Part shown: positions 1,533-61,272 of the stretch, piece after piece
Numbering within the stretch: the stretch's first letter is position 1
Layout of the letters: each line of letters begins with the position of its first letter
Assembly: GCA_009782315.1 (NCBI GenBank)
Contig: WRJH01000001.1
Location: 1-62,539 of the forward strand
Reading direction: 5' to 3'
Origin: Alphaproteobacteria bacterium
Lineage (GTDB): Bacteria > Pseudomonadota > Alphaproteobacteria > Rs-D84
DNA: 62,539 bases
Notes under the pieces: model-generated
Told to the model about the DNA's origin: nothing
Databases searched by the model: none
What the model saw: the letters and a program-made list of their open reading frames with translations, nothing else
Position numbers and translations under genes: made by a program

Positions 1533-3325
1533 TATTCTTTTTTATTTAGAAATTCGTTCCAGGCCTTTTGAATTCCGTTGGTTTGTGGAGTGTATCCGAA
1601 ATTCATATTGTTTAAGTATGTTTCCTTTTGTGTTGGTGTAAGGTTTGGATCATTTTTTATGCTCTCTATTACTCTTGCTGATGCGCTATTGTCCAAAAGG
1701 TTGCTCCCCCCCGTGCTGTCGCCGGCCACACCAAGAATTCCCGGTATATTTCCTTCTTTGACACTGTCACGTCTGACGCACATTTTTGTCGGGACAAGTC
1801 TTGTCTCTTTCATGCGCTGCAAGGCGTCAACGAAACCCTGGGCGTTGCAGAAATTCATCGCCTCTTGCACGGATACCTGGTTGCGTGTTGTTGAACCCGT
1901 CGGCGTCGGTGCCGGCGCGTCTTGCATGACCATCATTTGCAAAACGCCGATGTCGATATTCGATTGTTTCCGCCGGCGGGCGCCAAGAAAGCCGGAATCT
2001 AAAGCCTCGGACGCGCAGGCGACCTGGATATTGGAACCGCCGGTTGTAGTATAACAATTGGTAAGGGTTACGCTGCCGTCCTGATTTCTGGTTTCTGTGC
2101 AAAAGCACCCCTCCGTGCCATTTTTGTCTGGTGTCGCGCATGGTTTCCTGTTGCTCTGTTGTTCCGGGTATATCCAGTTTTGTTGCACAGTTTGATTATC
2201 GGTCAGCATTTTCATCAGCTGGCAGCCGCCAAGGTTCTGTGGCAAAACCTTGCCATTCTGGGCTTGGTTTGGCGGACAGGGCGGATTATTGCCAGTGCCG
2301 CAGCCATTGCAGTTATTGCTGTCTGGAGTCAGTGAATTATTCCACACATTCGCCCCACAGGACGCATAACGAATATGCTGGCCCGGCGTACACAAGAACT
2401 GGCCCCAGACGTGGCACGAACCGTTCAGCATCATATAAATATCCGTAATGTCGACGCCCAGCGTCTGGGCCATTATCAGCGCGTCGTATATGCTGTCCAA
2501 AACCTCTTCGTACGGGTCAAAGAAATTGTTTGCCAACTGCCGAAAGCGCGCCGCGCGCCGCGGACCGGTGCAATCGTCGCCCCGCGGGCCACAGCCGGCG
2601 TATTGGAACGTTGCATCCATGCTGGCATTAACGCGGGCCATAGCCGAACGAACGTCGTCCAGTTTTGATTCTATCATGCCCATCGCCTGTTGGCGGACCA
2701 GTATGTCCGCGCTTATCCCGCTGGCCGCCGCAATCTGAACCGCAGAATCTGATATGGTGGCGGTCGGCGCCGGGGCGGCCGCTTGCTGTTTCTGTTCGGC
2801 CAGGGCTGCCTCCATCCGTCGGCTGGCCTCTTGCTGTTCGGTTAATGCCGCTTCCATTCTTCGGTCGGTTTCCTGTTGCGAACGCATCAATTCTTGCCGC
2901 ATTAATTCTATCTGTTGGGCCGCCGCGTCGTTCGCGGTATTGCCGGCGTCCGCCCGCGCGACAACCGTCGAATTAGCAACCATTTGCGCCGCAATAGACT
3001 GTACCAGCGCGTCGCCGTATGATTTGCAAGTTTCGTTCGCCATTACACAGCCGTTCACTATCCCGACCGCAACCTGCATATCCGAACAACGTCCGCCGGC
3101 GCATTTGGGCGCGGCGCAACGTTGAATCAGCGCGTCGCAATTTCCAAAGTTCGCCGCCGCCGGCGCGCCCGGCGCACTGCGCGGGTTTGTTGTGGCATTC
3201 CATTGTGCGTTATTCATCGCGCCGCCGCCATCGTTGAACGATGTCAGATTTTGGGCGCACACTGGCGCGTGCGCCAGAGCATAGAGCATAGAGCATAGAG
3301 CAAAGATGCGGGCAGGTGTTTTCAT
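1532..3325 (-). CDS. secreted Cys-rich / coiled-coil hypothetical protein (597 aa)
   Basis: Signal peptide MKTPARIFALCSMLYALAHAPVCA/Q. Central coiled coil with internal duplication RRMEAAL(T/A)EQ. Many Cys in the flanking regions. Confidence 0.6.
   Translation of the reverse strand: MKTPARIFALCSMLYALAHAPVCAQNLTSFNDGGGAMNNAQWNATTNPRSAPGAPAAANFGNCDALIQRCAAPKCAGGRCSDMQVAVGIVNGCVMANETCKSYGDALVQSIAAQMVANSTVVARADAGNTANDAAAQQIELMRQELMRSQQETDRRMEAALTEQQEASRRMEAALAEQKQQAAAPAPTATISDSAVQIAAASGISADILVRQQAMGMIESKLDDVRSAMARVNASMDATFQYAGCGPRGDDCTGPRRAARFRQLANNFFDPYEEVLDSIYDALIMAQTLGVDITDIYMMLNGSCHVWGQFLCTPGQHIRYASCGANVWNNSLTPDSNNCNGCGTGNNPPCPPNQAQNGKVLPQNLGGCQLMKMLTDNQTVQQNWIYPEQQSNRKPCATPDKNGTEGCFCTETRNQDGSVTLTNCYTTTGGSNIQVACASEALDSGFLGARRRKQSNIDIGVLQMMVMQDAPAPTPTGSTTRNQVSVQEAMNFCNAQGFVDALQRMKETRLVPTKMCVRRDSVKEGNIPGILGVAGDSTGGSNLLDNSASARVIESIKNDPNLTPTQKETYLNNMNFGYTPQTNGIQKAWNEFLNKKE
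3275..3305. repeat. one-armed heptamer array (AGAGCAT x about 4)
   Basis: CAGAGCATAGAGCATAGAGCATAGAGCAAAG. The antisense strand encodes ALCSMLYAL of the 597-aa signal peptide. Confidence 0.8.
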
Positions 3326-3383
3326 GTTCTCTCTTGGGATTTATTTTATCAGAAAATCACAGAAAATACAATGGAAATGTGTG

Positions 3384-3530
3384 ACTACCCCGGATTTCCA
3401 TCGGCAACAAGTTGCCGGGAAATCCGACCCTTCTGGGAAGGGTATGTCAGAGTGCGATTATGCCCTTCATCAGAAGGGCCGGAAACCTGAAAGTCCGCGT
3501 AAGCGGACGACCAAAGGTTTCCGGGGTAGT
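3384..3530. other. structured intergenic element (nested hairpins), function unknown
   Basis: ACTACCCCGGA (3384-) pairs with TCCGGGGTAGT (-3530). Internal hairpins are CGGCAAC/GTTGCCG, ACCCTTC/GAAGGGT, CCCTTC/GAAGGG, GTCCGC/GCGGAC and CCGGAAACC/GGTTTCCGG. A T9 run follows at 3543-3551. Confidence 0.3.
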
Positions 3531-3580
3531 CCTTGCAACCAGTTTTTTTTTATTTTATAATCAAATCAAAGAGGTAACAG

Positions 3581-4633
3581 ATGAAAAAATTATTAATGAA
3601 ACTATTCGGGCCGAAAGCGCGCAAGACAACCGCCGGCGCATTGGCCGAAAAATTTGGGTTAGAGTTGCGCGGTGCGGCCGACACCGAAATAAAGGGAATC
3701 GCGCCCATCGCCGATGCGGCGGCCGGCCAGCTGACCTTTTATTCCACCGAACAAAACGCCGCGGCGTTCAAAATTCTGCCTATTGAAACTTTGCAAAAAA
3801 CAAAGGCGTCCGTCATAGTTGTCCAACCAGAATTTGTTAAAAAAGCGCCAAAGAGTGCGACGCTGTTGATAACCGAAAGCCCGCGCGGCGCGATGGTCAA
3901 AATCCTGGGCGAGATTTATGCCGAACCGAAACGCCGCGGAATTTCACGGCGCGCATACATCGAACGCGGCGTATTCTTTCGTGATAAAAAGTCATGCTAT
4001 GTCGGCCCGTTCGTCACAATCCGGCGCGGCGCCGTCATAGAGGCCGGCGTCACAATAGATTCCGGCGCATACATCGGGCCCGCCGCCGTCATCGGCGCAA
4101 ACACCGAAATCGCCGCGAACGCCTTTGTCGACAACGTTACCATGGGCGCCGACTGCGTAATAAAACCAAACGCCACCGTCGGCCGCGAAGGTTTCGGATA
4201 TACCCGCCAAGACGGCAAAAATACTCTTTTGCCGCATGCGGGCCGCGTAATACTTGGCGCGCGAGTTTCCGTCGGCGCGAATTCCATAGTCGACCGCGGA
4301 ATGATGGCCGACACGCGTATAGGCGACGGAACCAAAGTCGACAGCGGATGCTATGTTTCGCACGGCGTCGTCATCGGCCGCGAATGTTTCCTGGCCGGCG
4401 GAACGGGCGTCGCGGGCGGCGTCGTCGCGGGCGACAACGTTTTGTTCGGCGCGCAATGCGGAATCGCAAACAAAGTGCAAATCGGCGACAATGTCGAAAT
4501 CGGCGCGAAATCCGGAGTGTTCCAAAATGTCCCGTCGGGTTCGAAAATACTGGGATATCCCGCAATCAACGGCGTCGAATTTCTGCGGATGTTCGCATGG
4601 ACGAGAAAGCAGGTGAAAAAACAAACCGCGTAA
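3581..4633 (+). CDS. lpxD: UDP-3-O-acylglucosamine N-acyltransferase
   Basis: 350 aa with a left-handed beta-helix hexapeptide repeat region. LpxD-type motifs: GREGFGY, RVILGARVSVGANSIVDRG, DTRIGDGTKVD. Confidence 0.85.
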   Translation: MKKLLMKLFGPKARKTTAGALAEKFGLELRGAADTEIKGIAPIADAAAGQLTFYSTEQNAAAFKILPIETLQKTKASVIVVQPEFVKKAPKSATLLITESPRGAMVKILGEIYAEPKRRGISRRAYIERGVFFRDKKSCYVGPFVTIRRGAVIEAGVTIDSGAYIGPAAVIGANTEIAANAFVDNVTMGADCVIKPNATVGREGFGYTRQDGKNTLLPHAGRVILGARVSVGANSIVDRGMMADTRIGDGTKVDSGCYVSHGVVIGRECFLAGGTGVAGGVVAGDNVLFGAQCGIANKVQIGDNVEIGAKSGVFQNVPSGSKILGYPAINGVEFLRMFAWTRKQVKKQTA

Positions 4634-4650
4634 TACGCGGTTATTTTTTT
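4624..4650 (+). terminator. intrinsic terminator after lpxD
   Basis: AACCGCG-TAATA-CGCGGTT followed by ATTTTTTT. The lpxD stop codon lies in the loop. Confidence 0.6.
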
Positions 4651-5449
4651 ACGGACAGGCCGAAAGCAGATACATTACGTTCCGCACGTCGCGGTTTATG
4701 GATACAGTAACGGTGCGCTGCAGGCCGTCCTGGTATGCGAATGCAAACGGCTGGCTTTTGAATTCCGGCGCCGCCGCGTACATTTGCGCAAACGGTGCCA
4801 GCAGACTGTCGAACCAATCGCGCGATTTGCAAAGACACGTGTTGCGGACGTCCGCCATCATTTCCGCCGCGCGATAGTCGCGCGCGTTCGCATCCAAATC
4901 GGCGTCCGATATCATCAGGCATCTTTGTCCCATCATATTGAAATTCGCGTCGTCGAATACGGATTTGTATACCGCCGTGTCGCTGGCGCCTGCGCGTTTC
5001 ATTCTGTAACTCATTCCGTCGCGACAGCATGCGTGCGACGCCCGTATCAACAGCTTGTACCGGTCGATCAAAGGACGCGCCGCTGGAGTGTCGCCGTTTA
5101 TTTCCCAATCGGATGTTTCCGCCAGGCGAACAAGTTCTTCCAAACGTTCCGGCCGCAGGTTACGCGGATTGTTTCCGACGGTTTCCCGCACGTGCGGTTT
5201 GGAAAGCCATATTTCGCATTCGCCCGACGACAGATATTCCGGACAGTCGGCGGACGGTCCGATTTTTAGGCGTTCTTCGGGCAGATATTCCCAATGCGTC
5301 GGAAACGCCGCCATCAGTTCGTCGATGCTGGAAAATTTTTCCCATTCGTAAATGGCCGCGTTTGCAGGTATTGCGCAAACAAGGCATAAGGCATAAGGCA
5401 TAAGGCATATGAGTTTTGTTTTTGTTAAAAATTTTTCCCACATTCTCAT
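4649..5449 (-). CDS. secreted hypothetical protein (266 aa)
   Basis: Signal peptide MRMWEKFLTKTKLICLMPYALCLVCAIPANA/A. The h-region is encoded by the GCATAAG heptamer array. Confidence 0.55.
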   Translation of the reverse strand: MRMWEKFLTKTKLICLMPYALCLVCAIPANAAIYEWEKFSSIDELMAAFPTHWEYLPEERLKIGPSADCPEYLSSGECEIWLSKPHVRETVGNNPRNLRPERLEELVRLAETSDWEINGDTPAARPLIDRYKLLIRASHACCRDGMSYRMKRAGASDTAVYKSVFDDANFNMMGQRCLMISDADLDANARDYRAAEMMADVRNTCLCKSRDWFDSLLAPFAQMYAAAPEFKSQPFAFAYQDGLQRTVTVSINRDVRNVMYLLSACP

Positions 5450-5485
5450 AATTTTTATGCCTTATGCCCTATGACTTATGCCTTA
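5381..5485. repeat. inverted heptamer array (AAGGCAT x4 / ATGCCTT x4)
   Basis: Left arm 5381-5409 and right arm 5456-5485 are reverse complements with 2 mismatches. The spacer contains the start codon of the 4649-5449 ORF. Confidence 0.85.
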
Positions 5486-6148
5486 AAAACCTTTTGGCGT
5501 TCCCATTTTGAAATTGGACGCGCGTTTGTTCAGCGCGGCGATGACTTCGTCCGTAATGTCAAGCCCGGTCGGGGCGCCCTTTGCCACGCGGGCAAAGCGG
5601 CCGTCTATGACCAGCGACAGGTTCTTTTTCGCGGTGATGCCTTCGATAATCGGGTCCAGATCGCGTTTTTGAATTTCAACCAGCGCCTTTTGGAATTCCA
5701 TTTCAATCGACTGGGCGCGTTCGGTCAAATCGCGCTGCAGGTTTCCGACCCTTTGCTGGTAATCCGCCACGCGGCGCTGCAAAGCTTCGCGGGACAGCAT
5801 GTCCTGGGATTTTTCAATGTCGTCGCGTTCTTTTTCCAGCGCTTTCTGCGTCTTGGTCAATTCGTCGCGCAGGCGTGCCTCGAACGATTCCTTTTGCTTG
5901 CGCAGATTGGAAAGGATATCCGCGCGGTTTTGAATTTCGTCCATTCTGACAACCGCAATGCGAAGTTCCGCGGCGGTCACGGAATCGGACGATATGGACG
6001 TCAGCGCATGTTCGACGGAAACCGGTTTCGACGCCGTCCGGGAAATCGCCAGCGCGGCAAGCAAAGCCACAACAATCACGGCGCCCCCAATCATTCCCAT
6101 TTTCGCATAGTTTTTCGGAACTTGTTTTATTTTCATTTTTTTAAGCAT
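5483..6148 (-). CDS. skp: OmpH/Skp-family periplasmic chaperone
   Basis: N-terminal TM/signal segment MGMIGGAVIVVALLAALA, then a long coiled coil rich in E/K/R/Q and a C-terminal DIT..V pattern typical of Skp. Start chosen at the internal MLKKMKIK (6148). Confidence 0.65.
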   Translation of the reverse strand: MLKKMKIKQVPKNYAKMGMIGGAVIVVALLAALAISRTASKPVSVEHALTSISSDSVTAAELRIAVVRMDEIQNRADILSNLRKQKESFEARLRDELTKTQKALEKERDDIEKSQDMLSREALQRRVADYQQRVGNLQRDLTERAQSIEMEFQKALVEIQKRDLDPIIEGITAKKNLSLVIDGRFARVAKGAPTGLDITDEVIAALNKRASNFKMGTPKGF

Positions 6149-6329
6149 GTCGATATCCTTTCGATATTTAGTTCGTCTTTGATTATACCATAAAGCAGAA
6201 ATTGTATAAAGAGAAAAAGTCAGGCTGTTTTTGTCCATTAGGCCGGCTTGCGCATGGTTTTTGGTGTGAAGTGTATAGATGATACATGAACACCAAAAAC
6301 CATGCGCAATGCGGTTTCAGATGGGAAAA

Positions 6330-6992
6330 CTATTTCACCACCGGCGATATGCGGATTTCTATGCGCCGGTTCATTTGCCGGCCCGTCGTGCTTTGGTCGG
6401 AAATCGGGCGCGCGCTGCCGCGGCCTATGACGAACATGCGTATCGGCTTTACCCTGTGCTGGGCCATAAACAGCGCGACGCGTTCCGCCATGTCGAAACT
6501 GAACCGCGTCGCGGCGTTCTGGTCCAGCGACGCGTCGGAATATCCCGCGATTTCAATGAACGTCCGGTCGAATTTGAAAAGAACGCGCGAAAGCGCGCCC
6601 AAAGTTTCCGCGCCGATTTCCGAAATTTCCGCTTCGTCCCGCTCCATAAAGGCGTCGCGGATCATAACCACCAAAACGTCGCCGCCTATGCGCGTGATTT
6701 GTATTCCGGTTTTGCGCATGGTGTCGGAAAGCTCTTGTTCCAGCAACGCCATATACGCCGCGGTTTCGTTCGGTTGCAGCGTTTTATGCCCCGCGTCAAG
6801 GTACAGCGGTTTTTTAGCCATTTTCGCCGTTTCCGTCATGGCGCCGAAACTGGATCCTTTCAGAATAGTGTTCCAGGCGCCGCGTTCGGGCGTTTTATAT
6901 CCGCCGCAGGCGACAAGCATTACAGAGCATAGAGCATAGAGCATAGAGCATAGATATACGCGTTTGAAAAATTTATTTTTTAATATGGACAT
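6330..6992 (-). CDS. OmpA/MotB-domain lipoprotein
   Basis: Lipobox MLVA-C. C-terminal OmpA-like peptidoglycan-binding motifs: IAGYSDASLD...RFSFDMAERVA, GRQMNRRIEIRI. Confidence 0.7.
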   Translation of the reverse strand: MSILKNKFFKRVYLCSMLYALCSVMLVACGGYKTPERGAWNTILKGSSFGAMTETAKMAKKPLYLDAGHKTLQPNETAAYMALLEQELSDTMRKTGIQITRIGGDVLVVMIRDAFMERDEAEISEIGAETLGALSRVLFKFDRTFIEIAGYSDASLDQNAATRFSFDMAERVALFMAQHRVKPIRMFVIGRGSARPISDQSTTGRQMNRRIEIRISPVVK

Positions 6993-7035
6993 TTATATGC
7001 TCTCTATTACTTATGCTCTATTATCTATGCTCTGC
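6923..7035. repeat. inverted heptamer array (AGAGCAT family)
   Basis: Left arm CAGAGCATAGAGCATAGAGCATAGAGCATAGATA. Right arm TATATGCTCTCTATTACTTATGCTCTATTATCTATGCTCTG (imperfect). The spacer holds the start codon at 6992. Confidence 0.8.
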
Positions 7036-7050: not shown

Positions 7051-7572
7051 TTATTCTACCAGAATAGCGACTTTGTTTTCCCGGTCGTTTTTGCAATTTT
7101 CGGCAGCCGGATCGGAAAACGAATCGTTTGTAATAACGTCCGCCGCCCAATCGAAATGCTGCGAAGACAGCCATGCGCAATCGGAAAAGTTAAGCCCGGA
7201 AAGAGTTATGAAAAATCCGTCGCCCAAAGGTTCCGGGGACAATTCCATGCGCGTCGCCATGCGCGGCGGCACATCCGTTTTCAACGCGCCCATTTTTACC
7301 ATATAATGCACGGAAATACCGTCGAATCCGTTTCGTCCCGCGAATAGTATCCGCGCGCCGCGCGCGATTTCGCGCAGCTCTTCGCCCGCCAGCATGCGCG
7401 ACTGGCGCGTCGACACGGTTTGGTATACTTGCAGCGTTATGGCGACCAGCACGCCGCCGATGGCCAGCGCGCCGATGGTTTCGATAAGCGACCGGCCGGA
7501 TTGGGAACTGAGAACTGAGAGCTGAGAGCTGAGAGCTGACCGACCAGTATTTTTATTAAAAAGTTTTTTCAT
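7051..7572 (-). CDS. prepilin-type N-terminal domain protein (type IV pilin/pseudopilin-like)
   Basis: Start at MKKLFNK (7572). G/RSLIETIGALAIGGVLVAITL resembles a class III signal, with Glu at +5 and a hydrophobic helix. The leader is unusually long and partly encoded by the GAGCTGA array. Confidence 0.5.
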   Translation of the reverse strand: MKKLFNKNTGRSALSSQLSVLSSQSGRSLIETIGALAIGGVLVAITLQVYQTVSTRQSRMLAGEELREIARGARILFAGRNGFDGISVHYMVKMGALKTDVPPRMATRMELSPEPLGDGFFITLSGLNFSDCAWLSSQHFDWAADVITNDSFSDPAAENCKNDRENKVAILVE

Positions 7573-7604
7573 GATTATCTCCATTGTGAAACCAGTTCTC
7601 AGTT
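7505..7604. repeat. heptamer array (GAACTGA/GAGCTGA x5) with short inverted partner
   Basis: 7505-7539 GAACTGAGAACTGAGAGCTGAGAGCTGAGAGCTGA. Partner CAGTTCTCAGTT at 7593-7604. The spacer holds the start codon at 7572. Confidence 0.7.
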
Positions 7605-9197
7605 TGTCCCTATTATTTCTGCGCCCGCGAACAGTTCCAGCGCGCCCGCGACCATCGGGTCGGATGCGGCGTCGTTTTTGGATTTTTCGGCAAGCGTGGG
7701 CGCGTTTTCGGATTCTTGAATTTGTTCCAGATTCCAATTTTTTCCGGTTGCGGTCAAAAGCCATTTGGAAAGTTTCGCCGCGAACGCCTTGTCGGCGCCG
7801 CGGTTAAAAAACTTTATGCGTCCGTCGCTAAATTCCGATACTTCGACATTATTGCTGAATTCCGAAAGCAGTATGGCCTCTTTGGCGGCGGTCAGCGCCG
7901 CGGTCAGGTCGGCCGCAGAATTAATCGTGGTCCGTAGCCCGTTATCCGTAGCCCGTGGAGATTCGGACATCGGCGCGGCGCAATCTGTTGTTTCTGGCGT
8001 TGGTTTTTCTTCCGTTGAATTACGGGTTACGGATGACGGACTGCGGACTGTGTTTTGGTTTTGCGAAATCAAAACGTCGACCGGAGGCATGTCCGCGATA
8101 TGCATCAGGCGCACCACCAGCATGTCGAAACACTGTTTTTGATTCGCGGATTTTTGCATTTCTTCGACCGACGCAACCATAACCTGCCACAGGCGCGACA
8201 ACGTGTTCAGCGTCACGCCGTCTATCGTCCCCAGAATCTGTTCCCGCTGGTCATGCGAAAAAGGCGAAGATGAAACGTCGCCCGCGCGCAGCGCCGGATG
8301 CATGCGCGTCGCCCAGTGCGTCCATTCCATCATGTCCGAAAGCAACAACGATAAATCCGCGCCGCTTTGATAAAGTTCGTCCGCCTTGGAAAGCGCCGCG
8401 CTTGTATCGCCCGACAGCAGAATTTTCATAAAGTCGACGACAACCCCGCGGTCCGCGCGTTTCAGCATGTTCAGCACGGCCGTTCTGTCGACGTTGCCGC
8501 CGGTTTGCGCGATAGCCTGGTCGAACAGCGAAAGGCCGTCGCGCACAGAGCCGTCCGCCGCGCGCGCCAAAAGTTCGTTCGCGTCGCCTTCAAGCGTTAC
8601 CTTTTCGCAGGAAGCAATCCATGCGAAATGTTTTTTCAAGACGTCGACCGGAACGCGGCATAAATCAAACCGCTGGCACCGCGAAAGTATAGTCACCGGG
8701 ACTTTTCTGATTTCCGTCGTGGCCAAGATGAATATGACGTGCGCGGGCGGCTCTTCCAATGTTTTAAGCAGCGCGTTGAACGCGCTGTTCGACAGCATGT
8801 GAACTTCGTCGATTATATAAACCTTGTACCGGCCGTTCGTCGGACGATACTGCGCCGCATCCATAATATCGCGCATATTGTCGACGCCCGTGTGCGACGC
8901 CGCGTCGATTTCCAAAACGTCTATATGCTGGCCCGCCGCAATAGCGTTGCAGTTTTCACAAGTGCCGCACGGCGCGGCCGTCGCCTTGGCCGACGATTGG
9001 CAATTCAAAGCTTTCGCAAGTATTCGCGCGGTCGATGTTTTTCCGGTGCCGCGGATTCCGGTGAATATATACGCGTGCGCTATGCGGTCCGTATTTATTG
9101 CGGTGGTCAGGGTCTTTACCAGAACATCCTGGCCGATAAGCGAATTGAAATCCTGGCTGCGGTATTTCCGCGCAAGCACGGTGTAATTTGCGGACAT
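7599..9197 (-). CDS. dnaX: DNA polymerase III subunit gamma/tau
   Basis: YRSQDFNSLIGQ, Walker A GIRGTGKTS, a Cys4 zinc module CGTCENC, DEVHMLS and a SRC sensor motif. Start set at MSANYTV (9197). Confidence 0.9.
   Translation of the reverse strand: MSANYTVLARKYRSQDFNSLIGQDVLVKTLTTAINTDRIAHAYIFTGIRGTGKTSTARILAKALNCQSSAKATAAPCGTCENCNAIAAGQHIDVLEIDAASHTGVDNMRDIMDAAQYRPTNGRYKVYIIDEVHMLSNSAFNALLKTLEEPPAHVIFILATTEIRKVPVTILSRCQRFDLCRVPVDVLKKHFAWIASCEKVTLEGDANELLARAADGSVRDGLSLFDQAIAQTGGNVDRTAVLNMLKRADRGVVVDFMKILLSGDTSAALSKADELYQSGADLSLLLSDMMEWTHWATRMHPALRAGDVSSSPFSHDQREQILGTIDGVTLNTLSRLWQVMVASVEEMQKSANQKQCFDMLVVRLMHIADMPPVDVLISQNQNTVRSPSSVTRNSTEEKPTPETTDCAAPMSESPRATDNGLRTTINSAADLTAALTAAKEAILLSEFSNNVEVSEFSDGRIKFFNRGADKAFAAKLSKWLLTATGKNWNLEQIQESENAPTLAEKSKNDAASDPMVAGALELFAGAEIIGTN
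7931..8050. repeat. inverted heptamer array (CCGTNNN family) inside dnaX coding sequence
   Basis: Left arm TCCGTAGCCCGTTATCCGTAGCCCGT. Right arm AATTACGGGTTACGGATGACGGACTGCGGACTG. Same unit type as 54692-54819. Spans about 120 nt and is translated as VRSPSSVTRNS...PRATDNGLRTT. Confidence 0.75.
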
Positions 9198-9276
9198 GTT
9201 TTTTCCTGTTTTTCGTCTGAAAAAGGATAGCAAATTTTAATGTATTTGCAATGAAAAAAAAGCTTTCGAGTAAATG

Positions 9277-9400
9277 GGTTAAAATTAATTAGAACAGGCC
9301 AGATACTGCGTATTGCGAAGTTTTTGGCGACGGAGTGTATTGGATATACATAACAGAGCCAAAAACGAGCAAACGCAAAGTAGATGGTGTGTTATAATTT
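9277..9400. repeat. R4 repeat, copy 1
   Basis: CAGATACTGCGTATTGCGAAGTTTTTGGCGACGGAGTGTA...GAGCCAAAAACGAGCAAACG(C/T)AAAGTAGATGG recurs as the reverse complement at 29001-29120, including the AT-rich flank GGT(T)AAAA(A)TTAATTAGAA. Confidence 0.75.
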
Positions 9401-11906: not shown

Positions 11907-11972
11907 TCGTTAGTCGCTAGTCGATAGTCGTTAGAGAAGTCTTTTGACTGTTGACTATCGACTTTCGACTTA
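11907..11972. repeat. inverted heptamer array (AGTCNNN family)
   Basis: TCGTTAGTCGCTAGTCGATAGTCGTTAG / GACTGTTGACTATCGACTTTCGACTTA. Fills the virB9-virB10 spacer. Confidence 0.8.
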
Positions 11973-49449: not shown

Positions 49450-49547
49450 ACGCCCCCCGTTATCAATTATACAGCACGATTATTGCAAAATAAAACAGGG
49501 TAATGCAATGGTAAAATAATCTTTCTTTGCATTCCCGTCCCATCCAC

Positions 49548-49704: not shown

Positions 49705-49784
49705 CGGACTGGGTATGGGCGGATATATCCGCCCATACATTAATATTGCCAAACCGTAAATTTTGTTGTATATATCATTCCGCG

Positions 49785-52318: not shown

Positions 52319-52394
52319 AGGTAAGAGGTAATAGGTAATAGGTAATAGGTAGAAGTTTTCATACCTTGTACCTTATACCTTTTACCTTATACCT
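52319..52394. repeat. inverted heptamer array (AGGTAWW family)
   Basis: AGGTAAGAGGTAATAGGTAATAGGTAATAGGTAGAAG-TTTT-CATACCTTGTACCTTATACCTTTTACCTTATACCT. Same unit type as 16569-16645. Confidence 0.8.
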
Positions 52395-53767: not shown

Positions 53768-53872
53768 CAGAGCATAGATAATAGAGCATAGATAAGTGTT
53801 TATATTAAAAAATAATTTTATAAAATCATTCGGGCGTTTATCTATGCTCTATGCTCTATGCTCTATGCTCTG
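53768..53872. repeat. inverted heptamer array (AGAGCAT family)
   Basis: CAGAGCATAGATAATAGAGCATAGATAAG ... TTATCTATGCTCTATGCTCTATGCTCTATGCTCTG. The right arm encodes LSMLYALCSML of the following ORF. Confidence 0.85.
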
Positions 53873-54689
53873 CGTTTGCGCAGCAAACGCAGATTTCGAA
53901 CCTTTTTTTGACGATGCGGTGTACGATGATTCAACCGGGTTCGGCGGTTTTGACAATTTCGATAATTTCGATGTTTTAGCGAATAATGTTATCGACGAAG
54001 TCATAACGGACGCAGGGGGCGTGGATTTGTCCGTTGCCAAACCGGTGTATTTGAACAAAGACTCCGTTTTCGCGGGCGTTATGCAGTTCGACATTGCGGG
54101 CGTAATGCTTGGCATGGATTTCGAAAGCGTTTATAACCAATTTTTCAGGGCGAAATCGCTTTACGCGCCCAGAAGTAAAAATTCCATAATATATTCAGTG
54201 TCGCGGGATTGGAAAAACAATCTGGATTACGAATGCCGCCTGCAAAAAATATTCGCGCCGTCGTCGCTTGCCAACTGCATAAATTCTTTGGCAAAGGCGC
54301 GCGGACTGCTGTACGCGTCCGAAATGCATCTGGTGCGCGAATCGACGGGTGAAACGATAGCCGTTTATTTTACGTCCAACATGACGGGCAACGCCGTATG
54401 GCGCGTGGAATACAACAACGACGTCGACGAGATAAAGGGCGACGATCCGAAATTCGCGGACCAGCGGGAAAAGAAAATCCTGGCGTTCTGGCAGGGCGTC
54501 CTGGACAAATACGGCGCGCCGAATTCCGATGGCGACAAATGGATTTCGTCAGACAATACTTTCGACCCGATGATGGTCGCATATTACGGCCGTCTGGAAT
54601 TGATAAACGCCGGATTGAACGCGTGGGACGCGGCCGAAAATATCCGGCATTCGCGCGAAAATTTCAAGGCGAAACCGTATTTCTTTTAA
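53796..54689 (+). CDS. secreted hypothetical protein (297 aa)
   Basis: GTG start inferred. Signal peptide (M)FILKNNFIKSFGRLSMLYALCSMLCVCAANA/D. Confidence 0.5.
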   Translation: MFILKNNFIKSFGRLSMLYALCSMLCVCAANADFEPFFDDAVYDDSTGFGGFDNFDNFDVLANNVIDEVITDAGGVDLSVAKPVYLNKDSVFAGVMQFDIAGVMLGMDFESVYNQFFRAKSLYAPRSKNSIIYSVSRDWKNNLDYECRLQKIFAPSSLANCINSLAKARGLLYASEMHLVRESTGETIAVYFTSNMTGNAVWRVEYNNDVDEIKGDDPKFADQREKKILAFWQGVLDKYGAPNSDGDKWISSDNTFDPMMVAYYGRLELINAGLNAWDAAENIRHSRENFKAKPYFF

Positions 54690-54691
54690 CC

Positions 54692-54819
54692 AGTTATCCG
54701 TAACCCGTTATCCGTTTTCCGTAATTCATACCGTTTATGTTCCGTGCCATAGGTTTGTTTGCGCACACAAGTTGAACATTAAAGAATTACGGACTACGGG
54801 TTACGGATAACGGTCTACG
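54692..54819. repeat. inverted heptamer array (CCGTNNN family)
   Basis: AGTTATCCGTAACCCGTTATCCGTTTTCCGTAATT ... AATTACGGACTACGGGTTACGGATAACGGTCTACG, followed by a separate perfect hairpin TTTTTCTTGC-GCAA-GCAAGAAAAA (54821-54846). Confidence 0.85.
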
Positions 54820-56577: not shown

Positions 56578-57174
56578 CTATACCCTGTAAATCGTATCGC
56601 GTGCGTGCGGCGTGCCGATGTAAATCATCGTACCGCGCGGCGACAGGATGAAATCCAGTTCGCGCAAACGTTCGCGCAGATTTTCCCGTTTTTGTTTTGT
56701 ATTGCTGGTGTTTGGCACTTCGACGTCGTCGCAGATTATCAAATCGCTGCGCAATCCCGTGACATTGCCGTGAATGCCCTGGCAGATTACGGATGGTTCG
56801 CGAATACCTATGGGTCGCTGGATTGTGATTTTGTGGCTGCCCCATTCTTTTTTGACGGCGGGCGGCATGTCCGAACACGCCGGGTGGTTTTCCAAGATAT
56901 GCTTTATATGTGAAACCATTCGCGACGCCAGTTTTGTTTCCGCAGACAGAATCAGAATCCGCGATTCGGGGCGCATCCGCAGAACCCATGCGGCGAAAAC
57001 CCCGACGACGGACGATTTCCCGGAATGCCGGAACGAAAGCAACAACGCCCGGCGTGGGTCCGTGCGCAAAGATTCAACCAAGAATTCCAGAATTTTTTTA
57101 TGATGCGCGGGCGTGGACAGTCCGATAATTTCGTTCCAATCATCCAAGAATTTCAAAGCGGAATTATACGACAT
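56578..57174 (-). pseudogene. terL: phage terminase large subunit, N-terminal (ATPase) half only
   Basis: Walker A-like FRHSGKSS, Walker B LIICDDVE and IYIGTPH coupling motif. The ORF stops right after the ATPase domain. The nuclease half is at 39789-40724. Confidence 0.7.
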
Positions 57175-57524
57175 TATCCGATAAGTTTTGAGAATTGCGA
57201 ATTGAACAATTTGACCAGGTTTGTTTTCTTCGGTTTTTTCAAATTCGACATTTTGTTCATGTTCGCGATTCGCTTTTCATCGAACGGCTGTTCGGTTTCT
57301 TCACGCATGCGTTTCAACACGGCCTCTTCGGTCATGCCTTTGCCGCCCATTCCGGCCGCGCCGTATTTTGCGCGCTGCGCGGCCAGCGCTTTTTTAACCA
57401 GATTGGTTTTTGTCGCCTCGTCGGCCGCGATTTGGTCCAGAATAATCCGGCGTTCTTTTTTCAGTTCTTTGCCGGCCTTTCTGTCGGAAAGCATGTTTTC
57501 TATTTCATTTGCTATTTGTCCCAT
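57174..57524 (-). CDS. small phage protein, candidate small terminase subunit
   Basis: 116 aa, basic and coiled-coil. AAGGAG SD. Its stop overlaps the terminase start as TAATG. The call is from position only. Confidence 0.35.
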   Translation of the reverse strand: MGQIANEIENMLSDRKAGKELKKERRIILDQIAADEATKTNLVKKALAAQRAKYGAAGMGGKGMTEEAVLKRMREETEQPFDEKRIANMNKMSNLKKPKKTNLVKLFNSQFSKLIG

Positions 57525-57538
57525 GGTTTACTCCTTTT

Positions 57539-57655
57539 AGTCGTAAATAGTAGAAAGTCTAAAGTCAAAAGTAGAAAGACTATTTTGATATTTATTGGAA
57601 TTATTCCAACAATCTCTAAACTTACTTTCTACTTTGTACTTGCGACTATCGACTA
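57539..57655. repeat. inverted heptamer array (AGTCNNN/AGTAGAA family)
   Basis: AGTCGTAAATAGTAGAAAGTCTAAAGTCAAAAGTAGAAAG ... CTTACTTTCTACTTTGTACTTGCGACTATCGACTA. Confidence 0.8.
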
Positions 57656-59395
57656 TATTGAATATCTTCCCTCTGCCGTGACGGAAAGTACCGTCACGGG
57701 TCCGGGTTCGTCCCCGCTGATTGTCCACAGCGGGTCTATGGCGTTTGTCGTCGTTCCGAAAAGATTCACAGCCGTGTCGCCGGAATAGACATCCGCGTCC
57801 GATGCGTCCGCCGCAAACGGCAGCGGCGCGCGCAGCTTTTTTCCGCCAACGGAAAAGAAAAGCGATTGGGTTCCCAATACTCGCGCGGACAGTTTTGCCA
57901 GCCGGACTTTTTTCGGGGCGTGCCCGGACACGAACGGCGGCATGCTGGCCGCGGTATGGGCAAATTCGAATTCTCCGGAATCCGTTTCGGCGTCTTTATC
58001 GAATCGTTCGACGAAAGTTCCGTTATCGCGCTGTACGACGACATAAACCTGTTCGTCCAGAACGGCGACGGATTTGAATTTGCCCGCGGTTCTATACGCC
58101 GCCCATGCGGAAATGGAGAGAGGCGCTATTTTGGTCAGCACGGCCATGCCGCCGTCCGCCTGCGGCACGAACAGGCGGTTCGCCGCGTCGTGATACGCCA
58201 TATCGACCGGCGCCGTCATCATATGCGACGACAGGGCGCACAAATCAACCGCGCTGTAAGTATTGTTCAAATCGTCCAATACCAATTCGCGGATTGCGCG
58301 TCCGCCGCGCGATACGAAAACGGTGCTGCCTTCGATTTTCTGGGGCTGCAGATATATGTCGCTTTTGCTGCCGACGTTCGTGTGTTGCTTTATGTCGATG
58401 TTCGCCGGCGTCAAAGGCTTTGCGGTGATCGCCCATTCTCCGGCGTTGGTCAGTATCTGCAGATTGTCCGCGCTGGCGACTGTGCAGATTTGCTGGCGCG
58501 TTCCGGAAAGCAGGGTAAGGAAAATCGCCTCGTCGTCCAATCCGGTTCCGGCGTTGAAATTCATATGGTCGCCGACTTTGGACATCCATATGCCGGCCGG
58601 CCAATCGCGCGAACCGCCGAACACCAGTCTGTCCTGGTGGAACGTTATGCTGGCCGGCCAGCCGCGGGCCCTGGAAAAAGCGGCTTCGCGCCAATCGGAT
58701 ATGGGCGCCGGCGGCAGCGAATATCCGCCGTTGGTGCCGGCGATTACGACCGTGGGGCTGACGTAATCCGTTACCAGCCATTGTTTGTCCATGAACAGCA
58801 AAAGCGTGCCGACGATACTTTCGTCCCATATTGCGGCGCTGGCGGTCAGCTGCGCGGCGTTGTTTCCATATTGGTTGTAATTCGCAACGGTCAGTTTTAC
58901 GCCGGCCGTATCGTCGAATTTTATAAACGGCATGTTGGAGGACGCGTTTTCATTGACTGTGAATACGAAATCGGACAAAGAAAAATTGCCTGCGGCGGAT
59001 TTGCGCAGAACTTTCGGACAATGGTTCGGGTGGACGAATATCATCGTGCCGAACCTTTGCGCGTATTGCACGCTTCGCAGTTCCGATGCGGACCAGGGGG
59101 TAACCACGGTTTGCAGGCGCGCGCCATCTTGATAAACTTCGATGCTTTTCGGCGACAGAACCAACAGATAGTTCTGGTCGTTGGACGTCGAAAACGGAAC
59201 CAGGATGGAATCCGGCGCGGAATCAAAAAGCCGGACGGTTCCCGTCCGCCGCGAAATTCCGCCCGACGGCAGGACGTCCATATTTTCCAAACGCGACAGT
59301 CCGCTGTTCGCGGCGGCCAAATCGCTGCGCGCGAAAAATTCCGCGGACACTTCGCCATGCGCGAAAGAATTCTGGGTTTTGATAAATTTTCCCAT
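57653..59395 (-). CDS. phage tail tubular protein B-like / stabilisation protein-like (580 aa)
   Basis: Follows the gp11-like gene as gp12 does in T7-type phages. N-terminus F..GE.S....R.D......GL..L.N......GG...R.G is a pattern I recall for this family. Confidence 0.45.
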   Translation of the reverse strand: MGKFIKTQNSFAHGEVSAEFFARSDLAAANSGLSRLENMDVLPSGGISRRTGTVRLFDSAPDSILVPFSTSNDQNYLLVLSPKSIEVYQDGARLQTVVTPWSASELRSVQYAQRFGTMIFVHPNHCPKVLRKSAAGNFSLSDFVFTVNENASSNMPFIKFDDTAGVKLTVANYNQYGNNAAQLTASAAIWDESIVGTLLLFMDKQWLVTDYVSPTVVIAGTNGGYSLPPAPISDWREAAFSRARGWPASITFHQDRLVFGGSRDWPAGIWMSKVGDHMNFNAGTGLDDEAIFLTLLSGTRQQICTVASADNLQILTNAGEWAITAKPLTPANIDIKQHTNVGSKSDIYLQPQKIEGSTVFVSRGGRAIRELVLDDLNNTYSAVDLCALSSHMMTAPVDMAYHDAANRLFVPQADGGMAVLTKIAPLSISAWAAYRTAGKFKSVAVLDEQVYVVVQRDNGTFVERFDKDAETDSGEFEFAHTAASMPPFVSGHAPKKVRLAKLSARVLGTQSLFFSVGGKKLRAPLPFAADASDADVYSGDTAVNLFGTTTNAIDPLWTISGDEPGPVTVLSVTAEGRYSI

Positions 59396-59410
59396 CTTTA
59401 ATACCTCTTA

Positions 59411-59938
59411 TTAATACCTTGCGCTGATTAGTGAAAAATTCTGCACGCCTGTTCCGGACGACATTGTGCTGTCGATAAACTTCGCCGCGCGCAGTTCCGA
59501 ATCGAACAAAGCGGCCAGCGTGTTGAAAGCGTTCTGATTGTCCGACAGCGGCATGCAGAATTCCATGGCCAGCCGCGTCGCAAGACAGGATGTGAAAAAC
59601 GCCGGATAGTTTTCCACGTCGGTCCGCACAATCGCGGTAATGGATATTTTGTCGGCCGAGGATTTTATTCTGTTTTGTTTTATTTCATACTTTTGCGCGC
59701 TGCACGATATGACGCGCAGTATTTCCGCCGGCACCAGAAAATCGCCGGATTCGGTTTTGGTTAAATCGAATGTTCGGGATGCGAATCGCCACGGGTGTCC
59801 GGCGATCAGCGCATCCGATACGGCCTCGAACAGGGTCCGCGCCAGCTGTGCGGCGGCGGTGTCCTCGTTAAAGGATTGGATTGGCTTTTCGCCTATTTTC
59901 AACAGCGCCATGGAACAGATATCGATTTTGGTAAGCAT
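59411..59938 (-). CDS. phage tail tubular protein A (T7 gp11-like) / adaptor
   Basis: ICSMALLKIGEKPIQSFNEDTAAAQLARTLFEAVSDALIAGHPWRFA parallels the T7 gp11 N-terminus ([46 protein letters not shown]). Confidence 0.55.
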   Translation of the reverse strand: MLTKIDICSMALLKIGEKPIQSFNEDTAAAQLARTLFEAVSDALIAGHPWRFASRTFDLTKTESGDFLVPAEILRVISCSAQKYEIKQNRIKSSADKISITAIVRTDVENYPAFFTSCLATRLAMEFCMPLSDNQNAFNTLAALFDSELRAAKFIDSTMSSGTGVQNFSLISARY

Positions 59939-59949
59939 GGTTTAATCCT

Positions 59950-60189
59950 TTATAATTTTGCGATTTCGACGGCCGGGCCGGTCTGTCCGATTTTTTTCAA
60001 AGCGGTCTGGTCGTCGGCGTTGATAATTATTATGTCGCCGATATTCATCAATGTTTTTACATTGTTGAAATAACCGGCCTTTGATATATCCGCCATTTTT
60101 TCACCCGCGCCGTAATGCCACAAAGTGAATCCGTTCGCGTATGCGATGACCGATAGATTTTTATTTGCGAAAGCCATTAAAAACTCCAT
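59950..60189 (-). CDS. hypothetical phage protein (79 aa)
   Basis: Small ORF between the capsid and gp11-like genes. Confidence 0.4.
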   Translation of the reverse strand: MEFLMAFANKNLSVIAYANGFTLWHYGAGEKMADISKAGYFNNVKTLMNIGDIIIINADDQTALKKIGQTGPAVEIAKL

Positions 60190-60193
60190 TTTT

Positions 60194-60250
60194 AGTCTAA
60201 AGTCGTAAGTCTAAAGTCTATAGACTATTGACTTACGACTATCGACTATT
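60194..60250. repeat. inverted heptamer array (AGTCNNN family)
   Basis: AGTCTAAAGTCGTAAGTCTAAAGTCTA / TAGACTATTGACTTACGACTATCGACTATT. The AGTC/GACT cores are conserved, but the 3-nt spacers are only partly complementary. Confidence 0.85.
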
Positions 60251-60253
60251 TAC

Positions 60254-61066
60254 TTATTCACCGCATGCGATGCGGACGATGCCGGTCTGGTCGACCAGCA
60301 CGGCGCCCTGGGACATGCTGTTGCTGATGAAATGCGCGGCGCGTTCGCCAACCCAACTGATGTCGGTCTTGACTTCCTGGCCGCACGCGTGACCGATGGC
60401 GGACGCGTGGTACATAAAGCACTGGCGCTGGTCGTTGTCGACGGGCAGGCCGTTGTGCAGTATCCAGTTGACGCCCAGCCATTTGCGGGTTTCGAATCCG
60501 CCGGTCATCGCCGGCGTGCCGACGTAATCGGCGCTGGTGAATTCTTCCATGGAAAGCAGTTCGTTCCATTGGTTCACGCCGACGACGCAGAATCTGCGGC
60601 CGTCGTCCGGAACGTCGTTTTCGTTCAGTATGCCGACGGCGGACAGGATAAGTTCCCTGGTCAGTCCGGTCGAATAATCGCCGACGGTCGTGCCGGCGTT
60701 CTTCATCGCGTCGATGACCAACTCGTCCGTCTTGCGGCCCAGCGCGTACGCGCCGGCGGACGCCACCACGCGGCGTTCGTCGTGGTTGATTTTCAATTCG
60801 TCCAACGCGTCGACCCAGTCGCCCGCATAGTAATCGACCAACAGGCATTCCACCGGTTCGTGGTCCAGGTTCATGACCGGAACCAATCCGTGGCGGGATT
60901 TTGTGCTGGCCGTTCCGCGCCCGACTTTTTGGAAAGTCGTGCTGGCGCCGACAACGGCGTTTTTGGAACGGATCGTCGCGCGCAGTTTCGTGCCGGTTTG
61001 CTGGTAAGCCAAATGCACGTCGGCTTCGAATTGTTTTACGAAGGCCATGTTTATTGAATCAGACAT
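60254..61066 (-). CDS. phage major capsid protein (270 aa)
   Basis: Lies between the scaffold and tail tubular genes. The pattern F....VHLAYQQ.G.KLR......VG....FQKVG.G.A..K.R......M...H..V...L.DY.A...VD..D..K...D.......A.ALGR..DE..I.A matches capsid proteins as I recall them. Confidence 0.55.
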   Translation of the reverse strand: MSDSINMAFVKQFEADVHLAYQQTGTKLRATIRSKNAVVGASTTFQKVGRGTASTKSRHGLVPVMNLDHEPVECLLVDYYAGDWVDALDELKINHDERRVVASAGAYALGRKTDELVIDAMKNAGTTVGDYSTGLTRELILSAVGILNENDVPDDGRRFCVVGVNQWNELLSMEEFTSADYVGTPAMTGGFETRKWLGVNWILHNGLPVDNDQRQCFMYHASAIGHACGQEVKTDISWVGERAAHFISNSMSQGAVLVDQTGIVRIACGE

Positions 61067-61200
61067 TTTTGTTTCCTTTGTGTTCTGAATGTTGAAAAAG
61101 CCGGCGCATGGCCGGCTGCATTGTTTCGGTTTTCGGTTATGCGCAAGTGCTGCGCGCCGCGAATCGAAACCGCGCGGGTCAAAGGATTATCCGCGCGAAA

Positions 61201-61272
61201 AGTCCAAAGTCACAAGTCGAGAGCCGCAAGTCGAAAAAAATTTCCATAGACTAACGACTTGTGACTCTCGAC
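61201..61272. repeat. inverted heptamer array (AGTCNNN family)
   Basis: AGTCCAAAGTCACAAGTCGAGAGCCGCAAGTCGA ... TAGACTAACGACTTGTGACTCTCGACT. Confidence 0.8.

Follow-up and report, generated by a model that had tools for sequence, protein, structure and literature searches.

What kind of element can stand at one gene boundary after another with the same build and a different sequence each time? The question is raised by a 62-kb stretch of DNA (the window hereafter; 62,539 nt, contig WRJH01000001.1 of assembly GCA_009782315.1) from the metagenome-assembled genome of an uncultured 'Alphaproteobacteria bacterium', in which tandem arrays of 7-nt units are dispersed, most of them paired with an array of the reverse-complementary units. 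An earlier note on this DNA had listed 17 paired loci and had regarded the architecture, and not the sequence, as their common feature. The feature is real, striking and lineage-specific; the elements very probably constitute a fast-evolving class of palindromic simple sequence repeats (SSRs), and they are a richer variant of inverted heptamer SSR pairs, not a categorically new one.

According to Mrazek 2007, as cited in PMC4679880, heptanucleotides are the commonest long SSRs in the majority of prokaryotes, for which a match between 7 nt and the polymerase contact is a possible reason. The lineage described here provides a dense and diverse data set, with many units per genome, the same junctions carrying different units in sister lineages, arms evolving in concert, and arrays recruited as coding sequence for signal peptides and linkers. 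The maintenance of palindromes (slippage plus hairpin-templated correction), the part that long intercistronic stems play when operon mRNA is processed and the way in which repeats become protein sequence thus become directly testable.

Period-7 arrays, pairing and folding

Tandem Repeats Finder detects period-7 arrays at all 17 loci of the earlier note and further ones at 3276-3306, 30364-30446 and 45300-45335. Runs with at least 18/21 lag-7 identity number 17 in the window, whereas periods 4-6 and 8-12 yield none, and 50 dinucleotide-preserving shuffles contain no run at any period from 4 to 12; the excess of tandem heptamers is far beyond chance. When an array is defined by a 4-mer that recurs every 7 nt in at least 4 copies (the definition used for the density values and the census below), the window holds 24 arrays, as against 0 for spacings of 5, 6 and 8-11; with a threshold of at least 3 copies, period 7 gives 39 arrays and the other periods 0-5. 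Period 7 is hence the sole enriched tandem period, as is to be expected of heptanucleotide long SSRs. A super-period of 14 nt, often in an ABAB pattern, is exhibited by 10 arrays.

Nine unit types can be read (GCATAGA, AAGGCAT, AGTCNNN, AGGTAWW, CCGTNNN, CTAACAR, GAGCTGA, GATTTNN and AGCCACC), such that the view of a shared architecture without a shared sequence is borne out. An arm comprises about 4 heptamers, and the second arm is the reverse complement of the first. Concerning the pairing, an inverted partner array is situated 0-106 nt away at 16 loci. The second arm at 7590-7604 has only about 2 units, and the arrays at 3276, 45300 and 30419 are partnerless. Mis-assembly, which had been named as a possible source of the arrays, is excluded, because the identical sequence was found in independent ENA assemblies of other samples and homologous arrays in JGI assemblies of related organisms. 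Only 5 tRNAs reach the gathering score of Rfam in the window, and no heptamer element is matched.

As the second arm is the reverse complement of the first, a hairpin is possible on either strand. All 16 inverted pairs indeed fold as long hairpins (z-scores of -4.8 to -11.7 against shuffles), with imperfect stems of 20-35 bp. It had been claimed that a 4-nt core alone is kept in several loci, that the spacers between the cores are not complementary, and that selection for hairpin stability alone would not give such a pattern. When the arms are aligned without gaps, complementarity reaches 97% at the four best-conserved phases and 64% at the remaining three; a contrast between core and spacer therefore exists, but the description of the spacers as non-complementary was overstated. 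A simulation of uniform mutation followed by a pick of the best four phases already gives 94% vs 69%. Most of the contrast is consequently ascertainment in short arrays, and the argument against hairpin selection is not supported. Some position-specific constraint or mutability in the units is nevertheless real, since the observed gap lies above all 2000 uniform-mutation simulations.

Position relative to genes and translation

Most loci lie at gene boundaries, as noted earlier; 8 arrays, however, are situated within open reading frames (ORFs) and translated, a large minority that had gone unnoticed. The coordinates and contexts are given in Table 1, and three classes can be distinguished. The first (a) consists of post-stop-codon hairpins between co-directional genes, the 5' arm of which overlaps the stop codon or starts 0-3 nt past it, whereas the Shine-Dalgarno (SD) sequence and the next start codon come after the 3' arm (loci 11907, 16567, situated between rplA and rplJ, 17674, 35056, 54692, 57539 and 60194). 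In the second (b), the hairpin encloses a start codon: the 5' arm lies just upstream of it, the loop contains the start codon and the charged n-region, and translation of the 3' arm yields a signal-peptide hydrophobic core (5381, 6923 and 53768) or, at locus 7505, lies in a prepilin leader instead. By way of example, (ATGCTCT)n translates to MLYALCS and (ATGCCTT)n to MPYALCL. The third (c) comprises arrays within ORFs, namely the pair in the DnaX linker, the extension of UppS, the array in the RecG-like helicase and that in the signal peptide of ORF 1532-3325. Most of the arrays outside coding sequence begin 0-5 nt past a stop codon.

Table 1. Heptamer arrays and hairpins of the window, with their genetic context
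Position	Strand	Feature	Context
3276-3306	-	unpaired array	coding strand (ATGCTCT)x4; signal-peptide hydrophobic core MKTPARIFALCSMLYALAHA of ORF 1532-3325
5381-5485	-	paired AAGGCAT/TTATGCC arrays	spans end of skp/OmpH gene (5483-6238) and start of ORF 4649-5449; 5' arm 5455-5485 begins at skp/OmpH stop codon; loop carries ATG 5449 and n-region; 3' arm 5381-5409 codes for signal-peptide core LICLMPYALCLV of ORF 4649-5449
6923-7035	-	paired GCATAGA arrays	OmpA-family (Pal-like) gene 6330-6992; 5' arm 7003-7035 upstream of ATG 6992; 3' arm 6923-6954 codes for lipoprotein signal-peptide core YLCSMLYALCSVMLVAC
7505-7604	-	GAGCTGA array and short partner	prepilin-like gene 7051-7572; array 7505-7540 translated as RSALSSQLSVLSSQSG in leader; short complementary 5' arm 7590-7604; SD and ATG in loop
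7931-8050	-	paired CCGTNNN arrays	in frame in dnaX (7599-9233); in linker between end of domain III (residue 390) and start of C-terminal DUF3646 (residue 438)
11907-11972	-	AGTCNNN hairpin	fills virB9(CagX)-virB10(TrbI) spacer; stop codon within first unit; virB10 ATG about 10 nt past 3' arm
14241-14346	.	CTAACAR hairpin	divergent spacer, virB8 (-) vs tRNA-Trp/secE/nusG (+); flanked by two divergent promoter-like -35 boxes; GGTGGCT hairpin at this position in L064
15306-15445	+	AAGGCAT/TTATGCC arms	enclose conserved leader-like element upstream of rplK
16567-16645	+	AGGTAAT hairpin	starts in rplA stop codon; upstream of conserved L10 leader
17674-17738	+	AGTCGAA hairpin	2 nt past rplL stop codon; upstream of conserved attenuator-like hairpin preceding rpoB
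28331-28431	+	GATTTNN hairpin	arm complementarity 91%; SD and start of ORF 28436-28783 come immediately after
30364-30446	+	two non-complementary arrays	uppS start region; first array (AGAGCATAGATAAT)x2 ends on uppS ATG; second array (AGCCACC)x4 translated in 25-residue N-terminal extension of UppS, Pfam domain from residue 26
35056-35113	-	AGTCNNN hairpin	stop codon of phage-portal-like gene (35106-36476) in 5' arm; SD GAAAGGAG and ATG of Bbp19-like gene after 3' arm
45300-45335	+	unpaired GCATAGA-type array	in frame (HQSIEQRAKSID), residues 182-193 of RecG-like helicase ORF 44755-46836
52319-52394	+	AGGTAAT hairpin	between bamA/small ORF and VirB8-like gene (52419)
53768-53872	+	paired GCATAGA arrays	start of ORF 53796-54689; 5' arm ends at GTG start codon 53796; loop codes for n-region; 3' arm codes for signal-peptide core SMLYALCSMLCVCAANA
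54692-54819	+	CCGTNNN hairpin	2 nt past stop codon of ORF 53796-54689; upstream of helix-turn-helix (HTH) gene (54878)
57539-57655	-	AGTC/AGTA hairpin	stop codon of ORF 57653-59395 in 5' arm; SD AAGGAG and ATG of ORF 57174-57524 after 3' arm
60194-60250	-	AGTCNNN perfect-centre palindrome, loopless	3 nt past stop codon of capsid gene (60254-61066); SD and ATG of 75-residue ORF come next
61201-61273	-	AGTCNNN hairpin	between canonical terminator (61275-61326) of HC2 histone-like gene and region upstream of capsid gene

Heptamer arrays mislead the prediction of start codons by gene callers. Gene calls differ at array-coded N-termini (at locus 53768, the called ATG 53844 lies inside the array, whereas GTG 53796 gives a complete signal peptide), and NusG and RpoB were called at different lengths on L064 and L065, although these contigs are identical.

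Directly past the 3' arm of many hairpins, and in different genomes, a module TTTGCGAC(G/T)(A)AAGGAGCAAAAA-ATG is found (35035-35056 and 57524-57540 in the window; junctions in L071, L072, L075, L077 and L078). It is a strong SD framed by short self-complementary sequence and could be the consensus ribosome-binding site of the clade or part of the copied element.

Related genomes

Related genomes, derived from termite-gut metagenomes, were reached via RplJ homologs (3 at first, then 80 metagenome loci). Loci with at least 75% L10 identity are referred to as the termite-gut clade, and 66 alphaproteobacterial loci constitute the outgroup set. The density of arrays amounts to 38 per 100 kb in the window, 28 in the clade and 0.9 in the outgroup, and strict inverted pairs number 14, 13 and 0, respectively. 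Each lineage of the clade uses units of its own (e.g., GGTGGCT, AATAGTG, AATGAAT, AGGAATC, TAGGCAC, GAAGTTT, TAGTATG, AACGAAA and GATTKMT).

Despite this turnover, hairpins recur at the same junctions. After the rplL stop codon, a hairpin is present in 8/8 lineages in which the junction is available, 7 being of heptamer type and that of L070 a plain hairpin. After rplA, a hairpin or palindrome is found in 10 of 14 lineages, each of different sequence; among them are REP-like palindromes (L072, L079) and plain hairpins (L070, L080), and the junction is empty in L075 and L076 and holds another inserted sequence in L073 and L082. Between rplJ and rplL, 9 of 12 lineages possess a hairpin, and the window, L073 and L074 have a bare spacer of 12-21 nt. 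Of 20 junction hairpins, 14 begin within the stop codon or 0-5 nt from it, and this holds even for spacers as long as 250-600 nt. The prepilin leader array constitutes an insertion relative to the L064 ortholog, from which it is absent.

The arms evolve in concert. In the nusG-rplK spacer, the arms enclose the conserved leader-like element in four lineages (the window, L071, L077 and L079) but are built from AAGGCAT in the window, from AATGAAT in L071 and from AGGCACC and TAGGCAC among L077 and L079. The corresponding arm sequences read GGCAT/ATGCC in the window, GGCAC/GTGCC in L079 and L077, and AATGAAT/ATTCATT in L071, each change being present in all units of both arms. Similarly, the Pal-like ortholog in L065 keeps both arms with a paired change from TCTATGC/GCATAGA to TCTGTGC/GCACAGA, and the changed units still fold (z = -3.75); in L074, another unit, CTGTTTG, encodes the orthologous Pal-like signal peptide. 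Arms that change together between species would be expected of functional RNA, yet templating at the DNA level would lead to the same outcome.

Comparison of entire elements indicates that these are copied within the genome. The element at 16567-16645 is 83% identical to that at 52319-52394 over 77 nt, including the irregular order of the spacers, and the homology stops exactly at the feet of the hairpin; the 5' arms at 30364 and 53768 match at 29/29 nt. Strain-level polymorphism in unit number, for which the earlier note had proposed to look, was not encountered: in a small sample of 4 comparisons of near-identical contigs from different samples, no array differed in length (the window and L002 differ by 1 single-nucleotide polymorphism, L064/L065/L066 are identical, as are L061/L062/L063, and L067 and L068 differ only by homopolymer indels).

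Concerning base composition, the 5' arms of the window and the termite-gut clade are purine-rich (A 307, G 202, C 92, T 221) and contain 103 stop triplets vs 28 in the 3' arms, a bias present in 23/26 hairpins. Owing to the palindromy, this bias in purines and stops holds for reading inwards on either strand, such that an inbound ORF is closed quickly and an outbound ORF stays open, which would make insertions at gene ends and starts tolerable. Stop triplets are not enriched over permutations (TAA 34, ATA 43, AAT 30), and the viral and Patescibacteria sets described below exhibit no such bias in their 5' arms. The idea that the heptamers serve to close all three frames after a gene was discarded, because the bias tracks the purine-rich 5' arm; the bias is retained as an observation. 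Composition alone leaves the orientation of the purine-rich, stop-rich 5' arms unexplained.

Patescibacteria and viral contigs

A contig scan with RpoB gave mostly distant phyla, mainly Patescibacteria, and in these distant loci heptamer arrays turned up incidentally: period 7 accounts for 24 arrays, vs 0-4 for other periods, and 7 inverted pairs were found. Paired heptamer hairpins of other units are situated at the rpoB loci of L022, L028, L021, L029 and L032. When IMG/VR was scanned for a pattern of four AGTC cores with three GACT cores behind them, 16 viral contigs matched (L149-L164, GC content 0.41-0.70), as against a roughly estimated 10^-4 expected by chance. Several of them carry multi-unit paired hairpins at nearly every co-directional gene junction, e.g., 5 in 3 kb in L150 and 7 in L158. 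No useful annotated relative of these contigs was found among cultured phages.

Heptamer-built hairpins might accordingly be a general, unnamed class of intercistronic elements in bacteria and phages, made by a dedicated process stepping by 7 nt and read by a conserved factor, for which RNase III, the terminating ribosome or an OB-fold protein would be candidates. The tandem repeats of the arms would then be functional in themselves, e.g., by letting the stem re-pair in a shifted register while the first units past the stop codon are occupied by a ribosome. This broader proposal is considered rather improbable.

Comparison with known repeat systems

The architecture is most similar to that reported for Xanthomonas by Rehm et al. 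2015 (PMC4692102). There, GGGAATC heptamer repeats, mostly of four units and conserved at positions 1-4 and 6, form 70-75 convergent inverted pairs per genome that are able to form stem-loops; 89-93% of the arrays are intergenic, mostly between co-directional genes, at an average of 28 nt from the upstream ORF vs 160 nt to the next (PMC4692102). Among Xanthomonas species, the number or length of units and their sequence vary, whereas the single or paired type of a locus is preserved (PMC4692102). The conserved 4-nt core, the number of about 4 units, the convergent inverted pairs (16 here) and the position behind an ORF are shared with the window, the junction hairpins of which are likewise intergenic and nearer to the upstream ORF end. 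Despite this general similarity, there are clear differences: Xanthomonas possesses one G-rich unit per genome, discussed as a former of G-quadruplexes, whereas 9 units occur in the 62 kb studied here and none of them contains a G-tract; many arrays here are translated (signal peptides, linker), with 8 overlapping coding sequence; copies of whole elements and concerted evolution of the arms are documented here; and the host is an uncultured termite-gut alphaproteobacterium. The earlier note knew of no description of paired inverted heptamer arrays in a genome of this type and had let its novelty depend on the lack of a described family with the same architecture. Such a family exists in Xanthomonas, and the claim of novelty is in part lost; Rfam returned only tRNAs. 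In the literature, no general description of multi-unit paired heptamer hairpins was found beyond the Xanthomonas and Beggiatoa papers, and neither their translation in signal peptides nor their presence in Patescibacteria or phages was found described, which is weak evidence.

In Beggiatoaceae, cyanobacteria and Bacteroidetes, TAACTGA direct repeats end just before start codons (MacGregor 2015, PMC4679880), and inverted pairs are rare, with 1 among 170 sets in Beggiatoa and few in Nostoc. These and the cyanobacterial STRR sequences resemble the arrays of the window in being intergenic tandem heptamers, occurring also in ribosomal-protein operons, and in often ending just upstream of start codons without a canonical SD, as do the GCATAGA arms at 30364 and 53768; they differ in being almost always direct repeats with a single dominant unit. 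In Haemophilus influenzae, the (ATCTTTC)n array of hmw1A forms one arm of a long hairpin in the 5' untranslated region that is cleaved by RNase III (Rapun-Araiz et al. 2025, PMC12721329). A heptamer array thus serves as a hairpin arm there too, and the double-stranded stem is an RNase III substrate controlling expression. The partner arm of hmw, however, is a G-rich non-repeat, and the array is a single locus of 10 or more units that is hypervariable (phase variation).

REP, BIME and REPIN elements are short imperfect palindromes present in many copies after gene 3' ends inside operons, with genome-specific families, and roles in protecting mRNA 3' ends and in processing have been proposed for them. 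REP-like TGTAGGGGCG...CGCCCCTACA palindromes fill the very same junctions in relatives of the window; the heptamer hairpins differ from REPs in that their arms are tandem heptamers and their ends vary by family (AGGTAA..., AGTC..., GCATA...) without a conserved GTAG/CGTC tag. No Y1 transposase (RAYT) was found among the 20 proteins of the 62 kb that were scanned against Pfam. The window itself contains GC-rich REP-like palindromes built on TAGGGGCG...CGCCCCTA (644-761, 34799-34847, 36686-36693 and 43088-43095), and those at 644-761 and 34799-34847 fit the conserved-tetranucleotide feature of REPs. The 8-mer TAGGGGCG occurs in 8 copies vs 1.3 expected, one copy lying inside tRNA-Trp, and in the relatives L072, L078-L080 and L082 the TAGGGGCG...CGCCCCTA palindromes are found behind stop codons at the junctions that also take heptamer hairpins.

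Among alphaproteobacteria, the Rickettsia palindromic elements (RPEs), reportedly described by Ogata and co-workers in 2000, are said to occur also in frame inside protein-coding genes and to be translated. The palindromic arrays of the window are similar to them in being partly translated within genes, whereas RPEs are 100-150 nt long, of conserved sequence and devoid of heptamer periodicity. The omega (ribbon-helix-helix) repressor of pSM19035 recognizes contiguous 7-bp units in direct and inverted orientation; there, one unit (WATCACW) and one protein serve three promoters, whereas here many units exist, loops separate the arms, and gene ends are where most of the elements stand.

Interpretation

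Any explanation has to accommodate the arrays, their pairing, folding potential and positions, the translation in eight cases, the restriction to a lineage, the concerted change of the arms and the copies of whole elements, all of which were directly observed. Overall, they are best explained as fast-evolving palindromic SSR elements that are built by slippage and would act between cistrons as hairpins of the REP-like or RNase III type, an explanation given about even confidence. Units would be added by replication slippage in steps of 7 and 14 nt, in line with the bias to heptanucleotide repeats noted for prokaryotes; the arms would be kept alike by hairpin-templated correction or gene conversion, such that all units in the two arms come to share a change; and whole hairpins would be copied to new sites, to survive only where they are permitted, i.e., directly past stop codons, within 5' leaders, in the cores of signal peptides, in extensions of N-termini and in linkers between domains. 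One of the origins proposed in the earlier note, slippage or templated repair, fits the 7- and 14-nt periodicities, the concerted arm change and the whole-element copies. Function is the least certain step: transcribed hairpins would form long double-stranded RNA stems at cistron boundaries, which by analogy to REP/BIME elements or to the RNase III sites of phage T7 may process messages or protect their 3' ends, and which may make neighbouring cistrons independent of each other in stability or expression. The tight link to the upstream 3' end, the persistence through sequence turnover, the density in viral contigs and the hmw precedent support an RNA-level role at cistron boundaries, the chance of which we put somewhat below even.

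Several points weigh against this explanation. Sense and antisense strands fold equally well (-633 vs -635 kcal/mol in total, with 28 vs 34 G·U pairs), and the arm mismatches of 24 oriented heptamer hairpins comprise 15 G·T, 13 A·C and 48 of transversion type; an RNA-strand signature is therefore absent, and the palindromes look symmetric at the DNA level. An RNA-processing site in the 8 ORF-internal arrays would cut the message. The hairpin at 14241 is probably not transcribed, that at 61201 directly follows a canonical terminator, and in the simplest reading both lie outside transcription units. As several junctions are empty in close relatives and hairpins are lacking in outgroups, no hairpin is essential. 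Furthermore, whole elements are copied, but the flanks of the copies at 16567 and 52319 exhibit no target-site duplication such as a MITE would have, no insertion sequence or mobilising enzyme was seen in the window, and the reason given for units of 7 nt and of no other length is taken from the literature. The G·U/A·C asymmetry, tried as a test for constraint at the RNA level, was negative or uninformative.

The main rival to slippage-built hairpins acting between cistrons is selfish or neutral DNA, i.e., a by-product of heptamer slippage, palindrome correction and copying that has no role for the cell and is seen where insertion is not lethal. Such an origin agrees with the bloom restricted to one clade and the near absence from the outgroups, with the empty junctions, with the symmetric mismatch spectrum lacking a G·U bias, with arrays in coding sequence and in a probably untranscribed spacer, with the sequence turnover at every site and with the REP-like TAGGGGCG palindromes filling the same niches. 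It accounts less well for hairpins that persist after rplL in all and after rplA in most lineages despite complete turnover, for arm complementarity kept through unit changes, for the hairpins that viral contigs carry at nearly every junction, although such compact DNA is as a rule cleared of junk, and for an arm length of consistently about 4 units here and in Xanthomonas; neutral DNA is accordingly thought unlikely, if by no means negligible. Another rival consists of periodic sites for a protein that contacts one 4-nt core every 7 nt and would resemble the omega repressor on DNA or cold-shock proteins, S1 or HutP on RNA; a modular DNA/RNA-binding protein had been suggested in the earlier note. 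The omega repressor binds direct as well as inverted heptads, the core/spacer contrast exceeds uniform mutation, and the units of a family share one core and differ in their spacers (AGTC-[G/T]-A-[A/T] in 39 units, the core columns of which were fixed by how the units were collected). S1, Csp or CsrA were put forward for TAACTGA arrays by MacGregor 2015, and each CspB protein binds a single heptamer (PMC4679880). However, the 9 units of the window and more than 20 among close relatives have no motif in common, the unit at a given orthologous junction differs in every lineage, and most of the core/spacer contrast is ascertainment; a single protein is hard to square with such diversity, and the binding-site explanation is quite improbable.

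Terminators or attenuators working without a U-tract, a further suggestion of the earlier note, would suit hairpins directly downstream of stop codons, and a T7 run follows 14241. This is the only T-run, the other 15 of the 16 paired loci being without one, and a terminator scan called none of the heptamer hairpins. Canonical terminators are present apart from them (61275-61326 and, after rplL, the conserved attenuator-like hairpin), many hairpins stand between co-transcribed genes that need read-through (virB9-virB10 and, in relatives, rplJ-rplL and rpoB-rpoC), and some enclose start codons or lie in ORFs, which leaves termination a very slight chance. Contingency loci, in which a change in unit number would switch genes by phase variation, 7 not being a multiple of 3, call to mind the arrays in 5' coding regions of secreted and surface proteins (signal peptides, prepilin leader) and the heptamer phase variation known for hmw in H. 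influenzae (PMC12721329). As unit numbers do not differ between near-identical contigs from different samples, most arrays are non-coding, and arrays occur in the essential genes uppS and dnaX, where frameshifts would kill, we hardly credit switching at all.

Three narrower ideas were rejected. The dnaX gene of E. coli has a frameshift hairpin at the boundary of domain III, and the arrays in dnaX of the window have the same position; programmed frameshifting was dismissed, as the ORF is continuous, a slippery site is absent and the gene end of L064 is different. An invertible DNA switch around start codons would require inversion over the 45-80 nt between the arms, which is implausibly short. 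Neither CcrM GANTC sites nor G-quadruplexes are general enough to be the common denominator of the units.

Other repeats and neighbouring genes

Besides the heptamer arrays, a dispersed repeat of about 130 nt is found in inverted orientation at 9281-9412 and 28987-29115 (85% identical), one copy after virB10 and the other abutting tRNA-Arg; both copies are imperfect palindromes in their own right (arms 9279-9328/9358-9407 and 28991-29018/29090-29117). A palindromic family GTCATTGCGAG...CTCGCAATGAC is represented at 49547-49706, upstream of bamA, with arms of 66 nt that are 71% complementary, and occurs also in the nusG-rplK and rplL-rpoB spacers of L061/L070. An inverted repeat with C6/G6 blocks (CCCCCCTTGGGGGG ... 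CCCCCCGATGGGGGG) is situated at 36533-36661, upstream of a 994-residue ORF at 36783.

Structural genes of podovirus type lie in two separate places among chromosomal genes (34845-36476 and 57174-61066), next to bamA and an HTH regulator, and comprise a head-tail connector (PF12236), a Bbp19-like gene, Phage_capsid_2 and a tail tube gene; a prophage remnant is one possibility, a domesticated particle another. Of the six AGTC-family hairpins, four sit between these genes. The gene at 61331-61807 (-) encodes a Lys/Ala-rich HC2 histone-H1-like protein (PF07382, E = 1e-16) by way of tandem repeats of 15/30/60 nt at 61357-61789. The virB10-virB9-virB8 genes (9399-14177) adjoin tRNA-Trp-secE-nusG-rplKAJL-rpoBC, a synteny kept in L064 and L067, and a second, weak VirB8-like gene (52419-53093) follows bamA.

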